Sequence record: PP738783.1
DNA length: 64,000 bases
DNA from: Klebsiella phage vB_KpnM_Tauntaun_ER47
Reading direction: 5' to 3' (one strand)
Below the pieces are notes generated by a model. The model made no database searches and was not told the DNA's origin. It was given only the letters and a program-made list of their open reading frames with translations. The position numbers and the translations under genes are program-made. This document shows positions 2,262 through 4,293 of this stretch, one piece after another (the first letter of the stretch is position 1; every line of letters begins with the position of its first letter).

Positions 2262-2592
2262 ATTTAGCGGGGAACGGGATCAAAGCGGCCTGACGGGGTA
2301 ATATAAAAATTTGAAGAAAATGCTTGACCTTTTAAAATCTTTGATCTATAATAATTATTAATTAAAATTTTATCAAAAAGATCTAACAAGATCAAGTAAA
2401 ATTTAATAAATAATTTATCAAAAATTTTTAGATCTGATCTTGAATTCATAAATTTTATGATCTATAATATATTAATATTTTATTTTATCATAAATTTTTA
2501 TGAAGATCAATACTTAGATCTAATAAATTTTATGCTTTTTCTGAAAACTTTTCCTTTACCCCGTCACTAAATACTGGTACTATGTTCCCATA
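2262..2592. promoter_or_regulatory. AT-rich regulatory element with two sigma70-type early promoters and about 10 GATC sites in TAGATC(A/T)-type heptamers
   Basis: Promoter 1: TTGACC 2324-2329, 17-nt spacer, TATAAT 2347-2352. Promoter 2: TTGAAT 2440-2445, 17-nt spacer, TATAAT 2463-2468. GATC sits directly upstream of both -10 boxes. Repeated TGATCTA/TAGATCT motifs. Confidence 0.6.
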
Positions 2593-2613
2593 TTGGAAAT
2601 CAGGAAAAACAAA

Positions 2614-3402
2614 ATGACTCACTTGAAAAAATTCAAAGAATTTCTGACCGAAGGTAAAACCCTCGCTCGTACCGTAGCACGTGGTCAACGCGCTAAAACT
2701 TCCGATAAACATTCAATCGGTTTTCTTCACTTCAAACATGGTTCTGATTTCGAAGTTTTAGCACCGGATTCTCACGATCTGGCATACTTCGGTAAAAACA
2801 TTGTACGTTTGAAAGGTATGACTACTGGTAAAGTTCAAGCGGCTTATGTCGATTGGGCTAAAGGTACTGTTTCTTTCTACAGTGGCAATCCGGATGATGA
2901 TCTGGATTTCGACAAACCAGAAAAATTCAAAGCTGCTACTCTGTATGAAGAGGCGGAAGAAAATCTGGATCTGTATAACCAGTTAGCAGAAGATTTCGAA
3001 ATCGAGATCCCTATGGATGAAGCTCTGGTGAAAGGTAAAGTTTACAAACTCCCAAGCAACGATATGCGTCTTCTGTACACTGGGCGTTCTAAAACTAAAG
3101 CAAGCGGTGAATATGCAGTGTTTACCGTAGTTGATGCTTCCGGCAAACCTCGCCTAGTATCTGGTAAAAAATTCACCCAAGAATATAAAGGCGATATGGT
3201 TTCTAAACTGGTTCTGGCTGAATCCGAAGATCTGAATGAAGCGGCTAAAGGCATTCGCGAAAAAGTTATTGCTGTGATGGTGAAACGCGGGTTTAACGAA
3301 AAAGATGCAGAAAAGATGGTTGACAAAAACCTGAAAGATGCTATGAAAGTTAGACCTGGTGCGACCCCTGGCAAACTTGCAGAAATAGTTAGCACCCTGT
3401 AA
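2614..3402 (+). CDS. candidate injected internal protein; N-terminus resembles the T4 capsid targeting sequence
   Basis: ATG at 2614 behind an AGGA RBS (the track start at 2593 is TTG). N-terminus MTHLKKFKEFLTE|G resembles the T4 IP CTS MKTYQEFIAE with a gp21 L-x-E cleavage site. Highly expressed codon usage. Inserted between genes 3 and 2 on the opposite strand, with its own early promoters and terminator. Confidence 0.45.
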   Translation: MTHLKKFKEFLTEGKTLARTVARGQRAKTSDKHSIGFLHFKHGSDFEVLAPDSHDLAYFGKNIVRLKGMTTGKVQAAYVDWAKGTVSFYSGNPDDDLDFDKPEKFKAATLYEEAEENLDLYNQLAEDFEIEIPMDEALVKGKVYKLPSNDMRLLYTGRSKTKASGEYAVFTVVDASGKPRLVSGKKFTQEYKGDMVSKLVLAESEDLNEAAKGIREKVIAVMVKRGFNEKDAEKMVDKNLKDAMKVRPGATPGKLAEIVSTL

Positions 3403-3406
3403 AAAT

Positions 3407-3437
3407 AAAGCCCCTTCCTTTCGGTTGGGGCTTTTTG
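3407..3437. terminator. bidirectional rho-independent terminator; the 26-nt core is identical to 37940-37965
   Basis: aaagccccttcctttcggttggggct plus T-run, between convergent genes. Confidence 0.7.
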
Positions 3438-3438
3438 A

Positions 3439-4293
3439 TTAGTATTTGCTCCAGACTTTTTTTGCGCCGTAAGGTTTCCCTTTGGACATAAATTGCTGAG
3501 TCGGTAGCCAAACAGCTTTCGCCCAATCTTTAGGGGCAATCTCTGCTAATGGTGATTTGAGGTGTGATGGTAGATATGCTTTGATCATTTCTGTTGCGCC
3601 TCGCATACCTTTCACGTTACCCCAGTTAATTTTGAGTACAGTCTTGTTAGAGAGGCGTTTAGTGGATCCGTACCCTCGCTTCAATAACTCTTCTAAAAAC
3701 TCCTGTCGTGCTCTGGGTGGCGCATAGTGCAAGTTCAAACCATAGAACACTAAGTTACCCGCTTTCGATCTTCCGGATCCTAAGAAAATGATCAGTGGAA
3801 ATCTATCCCAATAAGGCAGGGTGTCTTTATATTTTGCATCATATGCAAACGTGTACAGGCGACCCGTTGCTGGTTTTGCCACACGGTGTGTTTTGATACT
3901 GGTTTTGATGAAATTACCAAACCATTCTGTTGAATCTTTCTGTCGCTTTGCTGCTGATACACCAACAGTGATCTTTTTCAGACTATTACGGAAATCGTTG
4001 ATGATCTCGATCCCGTGTTTTTTACGGTAGTCATTACGTTTTTTACGGGCTTCTGTCTCTGCGGAACGTCGTTCAATCTCATCATCGATCTGTTTTTTGT
4101 AACGATGCATTGACTTTGTGAACGTTGCGTAGTTTAATCCCTCAGAATCGGCAAAACGTTTAGCAGAAACACCTTTCGTTTTTGCCTTGCGGAATTTGAT
4201 CCCCAGTTCAACCCAATCACTCAATTTGCGTTTGGGTGGTGCTTTTGGTTTATCCTCTTCCGCGATGATCTCAAACTCAAAAATAAAACTCAT
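3439..4293 (-). CDS. 2: DNA end protector protein gp2
   Basis: 284 aa basic protein at the T4 gene 2 position. Strong RBS GGAGGG. Confidence 0.75.
   Translation of the reverse strand: MSFIFEFEIIAEEDKPKAPPKRKLSDWVELGIKFRKAKTKGVSAKRFADSEGLNYATFTKSMHRYKKQIDDEIERRSAETEARKKRNDYRKKHGIEIINDFRNSLKKITVGVSAAKRQKDSTEWFGNFIKTSIKTHRVAKPATGRLYTFAYDAKYKDTLPYWDRFPLIIFLGSGRSKAGNLVFYGLNLHYAPPRARQEFLEELLKRGYGSTKRLSNKTVLKINWGNVKGMRGATEMIKAYLPSHLKSPLAEIAPKDWAKAVWLPTQQFMSKGKPYGAKKVWSKY

Follow-up and report, generated by a model that had tools for sequence, protein, structure and literature searches.

The question raised by this locus is what a single open reading frame (ORF) encodes between genes 3 and 2 of a T4-like phage, at a place where T4 itself carries no gene. 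The locus lies in a stretch of 64,000 nucleotides from Klebsiella phage vB_KpnM_Tauntaun_ER47 (sequence record PP738783.1), and this whole stretch is called the window here. The window is close to the KP15/KP27 group of Klebsiella phages (Slopekvirus, Straboviridae, about 175 kb), with 99.9% identity in the region. The ORF starts with ATG, runs from 2614 to 3402 on the + strand, encodes 262 amino acids and belongs to the KP27_206 / KP15 gp175 family (phrog_7322). An earlier, sequence-only reading had placed it between genes 3 and 2 on the opposite strand, had stated that T4 has nothing there and had proposed an injected internal protein. The ORF is present as described, and the T4 record shows just a 106-bp gap between the two genes. 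The answer that we favor, with moderate confidence, is that the ORF encodes a T4-type internal head protein. This assignment is probably a candidate addition to an established class and no new kind of system.

The first 13 residues, MTHLKKFKEFLTE (2614..2652, + strand), form a candidate capsid targeting sequence (CTS) with a predicted site for the prohead protease gp21, L-T-E13↓G14, at the end (the arrow marks a cleavage point here and below). The sequence-only reading had compared this N-terminus with the leader of the T4 internal proteins (IPs), given as MKTYQEFIAE. This sequence is correct for IPII and IPIII, whereas IPI has MKTFKEF...ITE↓A (N-terminus MKTFKEFTSTTTPVSTITE). The resemblance itself is strong and conserved throughout the family. 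For all 1,748 ATG starts of a KP27-type genome that are followed by at least 50 codons, the N-termini were scored by BLOSUM62 against the real T4 leaders. With the IPII/III CTS as reference, the N-terminus of the ORF ranked 1 of 1,748 with a score of 26, where the next start scored 20 and the background was 0.3 +/- 5.0. It also ranked 1 of 1,748 against the IPI leader, again with a score of 26, and second place (25) was taken by a Zeta-toxin-like protein described below. A strict CTS regular expression identified the ORF as its sole match among 4,107 candidate starts, and on a T4 control region the same expression retrieved exactly IPII and IPIII.

The leader is also conserved at the positions expected of a CTS. 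Every family member starts MK[STNQ]FK[EQ][FLYM][LI]xE, with leader positions 4, 5 and 10 invariant and the variation falling at the 'x' positions. For example, distant representatives begin MKNFKEFMTE, MKNFKEYLNE and MKQFKQFLSE and keep the CTS positions. According to a review (PMC9026906), the mutagenesis of the IPIII CTS by Mullaney and Black assigns residues 4 and 7 mainly to targeting and residues 8 and 10 to processing. These positions are F, F/L/M, L/I and E in 14 of 14 aligned homologs. The leader has a column entropy of 0.69 bits, comparable to the low values of the folded domains, whereas the next 21 residues, a variable linker (residues 14-34; 2653..2715, + strand), reach 1.46 bits. 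In the AlphaFold2 model, residues 1-14 form a helix that is detached from the fold, with a predicted local distance difference test score <50. An unrelated N-terminus in relatives had been named as a result that would speak against packaging; the leader is conserved in all relatives, which favors the proposal.

The chief alternative is that the ORF encodes an ordinary, highly expressed early cytoplasmic protein which is never packaged, and that its N-terminal helix resembles a CTS by chance. The first rank against both T4 leaders argues against this, as does the retention of the four mapped CTS positions while the adjacent segment drifts. A site of the kind cut by gp21 had also been claimed, and L11-T12-E13 is present as a motif. 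The P4-P1 residues, F10-L11-T12-E13, are identical to those of the T4 gp23 maturation site FLTE65↓A (in T4, FLTE↓AEIGGDHGY), a further point against a chance resemblance. The corresponding site in gp23 of the Klebsiella phage reads FLAE↓AEIAGDHGY, and the gp22 of this phage begins, like that of T4, with MLKEQLLAE↓A. Judged from such sites, the cleavage specificity of gp21 appears to be conserved between T4 and the Klebsiella phage. The enzyme expected to remove the leader is a gp21-type prohead protease encoded at 31643..32290 on the + strand (Peptidase_S77, E 1.9e-73), and the same genome carries the core genes for gp22 (T4_CASP, 1.3e-85), gp67 (GP67, 1.8e-10) and gp68 (a gp68-like PHROG match). 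The predicted mature protein has a mass of 27.6 kDa and an isoelectric point (pI) of 7.9. Its predicted N-terminus is G14-K↓T-L-A-R↓, where the arrows stand for trypsin cuts that would leave peptides below a detectable length, and the predicted Glu-C N-terminal peptide is GKTLARTVARGQRAKTSDKHSIGFLHFKHGSDFE. A separate observation concerns the gp24 vertex protein (35453-36742, + strand), which starts MSEKFYTINKLVRQSQ without the T4 gp24 propeptide MAKINELLRE↓S and may not be processed by gp21 in the Klebsiella phage.

A second protein in the window bears a leader of this kind. It is a Zeta-toxin-like P-loop protein of 279 amino acids (43347..44186, - strand) with the T4-IPI-like leader MKSFKQFTESTLTE↓A, which continues as ALITFGG and gives a predicted mature N-terminus at Ala15. 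It matches PF06414 with 30.6 bits against a gathering score of 22.3 and has the Walker A sequence GGAGSGKG, and its family returned 1,645 database matches across T4-like phages. In most of 120 diverse members the leader follows one design, namely xSFKxF, a variable spacer, and [LI]-x-E directly before the core LITFGGKAYPKFG, for example MLSFEEFLNE↓KLITFGG and MISFKDFITE↓KLMTFG. The Zeta-like protein is unrelated to the 262-residue protein, yet has the same kind of leader, and the T4 internal proteins are themselves unrelated proteins with only a leader in common (PMC3012670). Thus, the leader on a second unrelated protein provides independent support for a working CTS system in the phage, and a shared design in two unrelated families counts against chance. 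From its sequence, the Zeta-like protein is a candidate packaged or injected kinase. The gene divergent from it (44301-45176, + strand) encodes a 291-residue protein (phrog_7439) that starts MKIDLHRFIAE↓FS. The RFIAE of this protein resembles the EFIAE of T4 IPII/III, and it may be a third leader-bearing protein.

Codon usage had been likened to that of highly expressed structural genes, and the measurement bears this out. With gp23, gp18, gp19 and gp22 as the reference set, the ORF has a codon adaptation index (CAI) of 0.668, which places it fourth among the 74 ORFs with 100 or more amino acids, after three members of the reference set. The other ORFs of known function in the top 10 are gp23, gp18, gp19, gp22, a Hoc-like decoration protein and gp24. 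The CAI of the Zeta-like protein (0.599) is likewise one of the highest in the window. The 262-residue protein is produced in large amounts, and its codon usage groups with the abundant virion proteins and not with early genes (CAI 0.38-0.53), contrary to what an early cytoplasmic protein would suggest. The lowest CAI measured, 0.384, belongs to a 211-residue ORF with a GIY-YIG-like start (IYKITNLVNNKIYVGAHS) at 34785-35420 (+ strand), between gp23 and gp24 in what is the segD slot in T4, and this value fits a mobile homing-endonuclease gene.

The ORF had been credited with its own pair of sigma70 promoters, and both were found. The distal promoter P1 (TTGACC-17-TATAAT; 2324..2352, + strand) matches the consensus at 11/12 positions, and the proximal promoter P2 (TTGAAT-17-TATAAT; 2440..2468, + strand), annotated as a consensus promoter in KP27, matches at 10/12. 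They are the top two + strand sigma70 sites in the first 9 kb. However, the hexamers alone are weak evidence, because the leader DNA (2245-2613, 369 bp) is AT-rich with 25% guanine plus cytosine (GC), and because promoter-like sites are not enriched over 9 kb (27 found versus 21.8 expected from shuffles). In RB16, the corresponding place is taken by TTGACC-17-TATCAT, even though the rest of the leader DNA is unrelated. The authors of the KP27 genome annotated P1 as a 'putative middle promoter'. A MotA-type middle promoter was rejected here since the TGCTT lies ~5 nt too far upstream for the spacing of a T4-type MotA box, and P1 is therefore treated as sigma70-type. A weak third promoter-like site, read directly from the sequence and tentative, occurs at 2555..2583 on the + strand (TTTACC-17-TACTAT, 8/12, below the scan threshold) and has the same form as the T4 ipI promoter.

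These early-type promoters are no argument against an internal protein, because T4 ipII and ipI also have sigma70-type promoters directly upstream (TTTACA-17-TATATT and TTTACA-17-TACTAT, respectively). None of the T4 ip genes showed a perfect late motif within the 140 nt that precede it. The T4 IPs are made from early times onward. Translation would begin behind a Shine-Dalgarno sequence, AGGA, read directly 8 nt 5' of the ATG (2602..2605, + strand). An alternative TTG start at 2623, which would give the 10-residue leader MKKFKEFLTE, was rejected, as no Shine-Dalgarno sequence precedes the TTG and AGGA stands 8 nt before the ATG. The terminator that had been ascribed to the ORF is present as a strong hairpin at 3407..3434 (-16.9 kcal/mol, z = -3.98, then a U-run), although it stands back-to-back with gene 2 and is a bidirectional intrinsic terminator common to both genes. 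It was not flagged by a simple scan, and it is identical in RB16 and RB43.

An internal head protein would be made and used as follows. The ORF would be transcribed from its own sigma70-type promoter or promoters from early infection, and the protein would accumulate to a high level. By analogy with T4, the 13-residue leader would act as a CTS and dock the protein on the gp22/gp67/gp68 scaffolding core of the assembling prohead, where the gp21-type prohead protease would cut after Glu13. The mature protein would then be retained in the head with the DNA and would enter the next host cell with it, on the precedent of the T4 internal proteins (PMC3012670, PMC5694885).

Several points weigh against this assignment. 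First, looser forms of the leader pattern are found in ~1% of ORFs, UvsW.1 (MKSFNDFRLYE) and a Vs.6-like gene among them, and so the case rests on the close match and its conservation and not on a generic 'MKxF' start. Secondly, in the KP15-type copy the motif is preceded by an additional MTH, which shifts it by three residues relative to T4 and all other family members; the offset is probably tolerated, because the same motif occurs in the Zeta-like family at offsets of about -1 to +4 relative to Met. Third, the P1' residue is Gly, Ser or Val in this family and Ala in T4. Fourth, no TATAAATA late promoter occurs upstream of the ORF, although the motif precedes gp19, gp20, gp21 and gp22 in the window, and thus supply to the prohead would depend on early synthesis or read-through. 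Fifth, the protein is larger and less charged than T4 IPI-III, near-neutral and far more conserved. Lastly, six internal [LI]xE motifs mean that the protein might be fragmented and not retained intact. The near-miss in UvsW.1 (PF11637; 37972-38205, - strand) reads MKSFNDFRLYE↓A in full, on a protein that is not known to be packaged, which makes it a suitable negative control for programs that predict a CTS.

An early cytoplasmic protein would account for several of these points, namely the presence of sigma70-type promoters only, the occurrence of MKxF-type N-termini on non-packaged proteins such as UvsW.1, and the strong conservation and neutral pI that set the protein apart from T4 IPs. In addition, the C-terminal module of the protein is a leaderless early gene in RB43, and its core domain is found at the C-terminus of an Aeromonas CC2 protein without a CTS-like start. 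Against the leader ranking, the conserved CTS positions, the gp23-like site, the second leader-bearing family and the codon usage, we consider an unpackaged protein unlikely, and it is the strongest of the alternatives.

The other protein-level alternatives concern the anatomy of the mature part. Behind the variable linker lies a strongly conserved, beta-rich domain A (residues 35-127; 2716..2994, + strand), in which the domain extends to ~111 and is followed by a helix ending in LAE126. Its invariant residues are H39, H42, D45, D52-S-H-D55, YFGK and VRLKG.TTGK. A linker of low confidence in the model (residues 128-136) leads to a small beta domain B (residues 137-200; 3022..3213, + strand). 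Next is the acidic junction LAE↓SEDLNE↓A (residues 201-209; 3214..3240, + strand), which has two gp21-type sites and is the breakpoint of module swaps. The protein ends with an exchangeable three-helix module (residues 210-262; 3241..3399, + strand; phrog_9411), 53 amino acids long with a pI of 9.9. These boundaries come from the alignment and from an AlphaFold2 model of medium confidence (predicted template modeling score, pTM, 0.44).

The domains also occur in other combinations. Domain A is found alone (P0018, 133 amino acids), fused directly to other modules (P0016 and P0017), at the C-terminus of Aeromonas CC2 gp193, which is the protein without a CTS-like start mentioned above, and possibly in Vibrio phage nt-1 (BFVD match, E 1e-4). 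The window and phage KMI7 share 99.0% identity as far as nt 3242 (residue ~210), and 98.7% identity resumes at nt 3399. Between these points, 156 bp of the window are replaced in KMI7 by 312 unrelated bp, which encode a different module of 104 amino acids. The RB43 copy ends at residue 202, and the three-helix module occurs in RB43 as a separate leaderless gene within an early-region operon. This leaderless early gene points to an activity that the phage requires inside its host as soon as infection begins, such as host takeover or counter-defence.

The arrangement raises the alternative that the protein is a capsid-targeted carrier polyprotein or a component of the prohead core, cut by gp21 at [LI]-x-E↓[A/S] junctions between its domains. 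The outcome would be release of the C-terminal module and possibly of the two beta domains, or degradation like that of gp22, gp67 and gp68. Internal [LI]xE motifs are enriched in the protein (6 versus 2.15 expected, P = 0.012) and lie in the two linkers, 128-136 and 204-211, that are modeled with low confidence. Whatever its type, each C-terminal module of the family directly follows an [LI]-x-E↓[A/S] site (DLNE↓A, EINE↓A, IDE↓A, LDE↓A, LAE↓S or LVE↓A), and modules joined directly to domain A begin right after LAE126. The module exchange between 99%-identical phages also breaks exactly at the junction. These sequence features suggest that gp21 could also cut between domains. However, [LI]xE inside folded T4 proteins is mostly uncut, as is generally known of gp23; the excess of motifs is modest, Glu- and Leu-rich linkers could have other origins, and the domain boundaries depend on the medium-confidence model. 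We regard a polyprotein of this kind as quite improbable. A related proposal, which we consider improbable as well, is a modular delivery platform in which the CTS and a carrier (leader and two beta domains) would bring interchangeable C-terminal effectors into the head, to be freed by the prohead protease at [LI]-x-E↓A. If this were true, closely related phages would inject different small effectors from one chassis, a phage-head analogue of polymorphic toxins.

The DNA upstream of the ORF has unusual features of its own. Two diverged copies of a ~116-bp tandem unit (2323..2554, + strand) each contain one promoter and a TTTATCA..AGATC element; the repeat families D1 and D2 have a spacing of 115-116 nt and 77-79% identity. 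Region 2245-2613 contains 10 GATC sites, compared with a window mean of 2.6 per 370 bp. One GATC lies directly 5' of each -10 hexamer (TGATCTATAAT), several lie inside AGATCT palindromes, and the region also holds TTTATCAAAAA-type repeats. A 42-nt inverted repeat (2291-2332 / 2525-2566) brackets the duplicated promoters. Dam-dependent regulation or an origin-like element in this region are possibilities. The GATC cluster is absent from the leaders of RB16 and RB43 (2 GATC each). In these two phages (L006 2239-2500 and L007 2228-2500, respectively), the DNA upstream of the homologous gene bears no relation to the Slopekvirus leader and has GC-rich CGAAGCGAAC / CGCTTCGCT repeat elements around an AT-rich core. 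The 5' leader RNA gave no Rfam match and no significant structure (z = -1.3). That this DNA is the notable feature of the locus, as a regulatory or replication-origin-like element with a duplicated promoter beside which the ORF is incidental, would agree with its base composition, GATC density and repeats and with the nearby T4 oriE, in gene 5, but is very improbable, since the leader DNA is not conserved in RB16/RB43 whereas the ORF, a promoter and the terminator are, since no RNA element was found in it, and since such an element would be compatible with an internal head protein.

The family itself is small and narrowly distributed. It comprises 14 clusters in a collection of 5.8 billion proteins and 13 representatives among 1.84 billion; an exhaustive HMMER search of the 1.84 billion representatives gave only 13 matches, each of them to this narrow family or to its C-terminal module. 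The members of the family are restricted to Slopekvirus, Pseudotevenvirus (RB16, RB43 and GAP161-like phages) and Yersinia, Pantoea and Morganella-type relatives. The position between genes 3 and 2 is kept in Slopekvirus, Pseudotevenvirus, a Morganella-phage-like genome and metagenomic relatives. The sequence-only reading had described T4 internal proteins as hypervariable between T4-like phages. The gene between genes 3 and 2 is syntenic across the clade with a strongly conserved core, and only its C-terminal module is exchanged (KMI7) or absent (RB43). The term 'hypervariable' thus appears wrong for the whole gene and right only for the C-terminal module.

Homology did not reveal a function. 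Pfam, NCBIfam and PADLOC returned nothing informative, and PHROGs gave families of unknown function only. A hidden Markov model search of PDB sequences gave sub-threshold matches only (best E 0.48). The fold search on the AlphaFold model that the sequence-only reading had proposed was run, and three fold searches were uninformative, with no significant Foldseek match against PDB. The suggested role as an anti-restriction effector found no support, in that there was no sequence or fold match to IPI or to a known inhibitor of restriction or defence, and the role is an analogy only. The description of the protein as undescribed does stand for the databases and literature searched, where it is not named. 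All public records of the gene call it hypothetical (KP27_206 is a 'hypothetical protein') or, wrongly, a 'tail completion protein'. Neither internal proteins nor virion proteomics come up in the paper on the KP15 and KP27 genomes, and in the literature searched on Slopekvirus and the RB43 group (Pseudotevenvirus) no virion mass spectrometry and no mention of the gene were found. The one T4-like Klebsiella virion proteome found in the literature is that of a Jiaodavirus, which has no copy of the gene.

In all relatives examined, the ORF adjoins gene 2 within the cluster of head and tail morphogenesis genes. On the - strand of the window, the order is 57B/Acb1 (69-704), 57A (744-1016), gene 1 (1019-1714), gene 3 (gp3, 1714-2244), then the ORF on the opposite strand, gene 2 (gp2, 3439-4293) and gene 4 (4309-4776), beyond which genes 53 and 5 lie on the + strand. 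The statement that T4 internal-protein genes adjoin 57B was confirmed for ipI in the T4 record. By its match to PF23474 (E 2.3e-47), the 57B homolog (69-704, - strand) is an Acb1 anti-CBASS phosphodiesterase, with a C-terminal extension of ~50 residues which is absent in T4 57B (211 versus 152 amino acids) and matches phrog_3684. Between genes 5 and 6, where T4 has only small genes, the window carries a 688-residue ORF, KP27_211 (7152-9218, + strand).

Three known systems were compared with this locus. The closest is the class of CTS-bearing, gp21-processed, injected head proteins of T4, IPI-III and Alt. Like T4 IPs, the ORF has a leader in the range of 10-19 residues whose fourth residue is aromatic, whose seventh is hydrophobic and whose eighth is L/I, with a Glu at the predicted cleavage point, its own sigma70-type promoter, a place in the neighborhood of 57B, 1, 3 and 2, high expression, the gp21/gp22/gp67/gp68 machinery, and a leader common to unrelated proteins of one genome. 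Unlike T4 IPs, its mature part has no sequence or fold similarity to them, and it has 262 amino acids in three domains compared with 95-193 amino acids, a near-neutral pI, strict synteny and conservation across genera with only the C-terminal module exchanged, and, in this phage, a leader offset by three residues.

The second system is the promoter-early/stem-loop (PeSL) mobile cassette of T4-type phages (Arbiol et al. 2010, PMC2839356; Comeau et al. 2014, PMC4122927). The locus is similar in having a single accessory ORF between a near-consensus sigma70 promoter and a stem-loop terminator amid core genes, and the KP27 genome has many composite promoter/terminator motifs. However, the promoters (2324-2468) and the terminator (3407-3434) are at opposite ends here and form no composite motif. 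The gene is also fixed at one site in all relatives, so that it is no recently shuffled ORFan, and the documented exchange lies inside the coding sequence. The third system is found in giant phages (phiKZ, 201phi2-1 and SPN3US), whose head-internal ejection proteins have N-terminal targeting propeptides that are cut after Glu by a gp21-related protease and can hold multiple cleavage motifs (PMC5694885). The ORF resembles these in its N-terminal propeptide with a predicted cut after Glu by a gp21-type protease. The propeptides of giant phages are typically >100 residues with A/S-x-E motifs, whereas the Klebsiella leader is short and T4-like.

Injected internal proteins are the first molecules of a phage in its host, and the T4 set includes a dedicated restriction inhibitor. 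We know of almost no injected internal proteins identified outside the T-even group. KP15/KP27-type phages are widely used as candidates for Klebsiella therapy. Knowledge of the proteins that are injected together with the DNA bears on their host range and on their escape from defence systems. The DNA of these phages carries an unidentified modification (PMC5219037), and it is established that T4 relatives carry diverse CTS-bearing proteins (PMC9026906, PMC3012670). This analysis names two candidate cargo families, that of the 262-residue protein and that of the Zeta-toxin-like P-loop protein, the latter with >1,600 database proteins. With a leader that acts as the T4 leaders do, foreign proteins could also be loaded into Klebsiella phage heads. 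If the delivery platform and the packaging of the Zeta-like family were both true, KP15/RB43-type and many other T4-like phages would inject enzymes and effectors that have so far gone uncatalogued.

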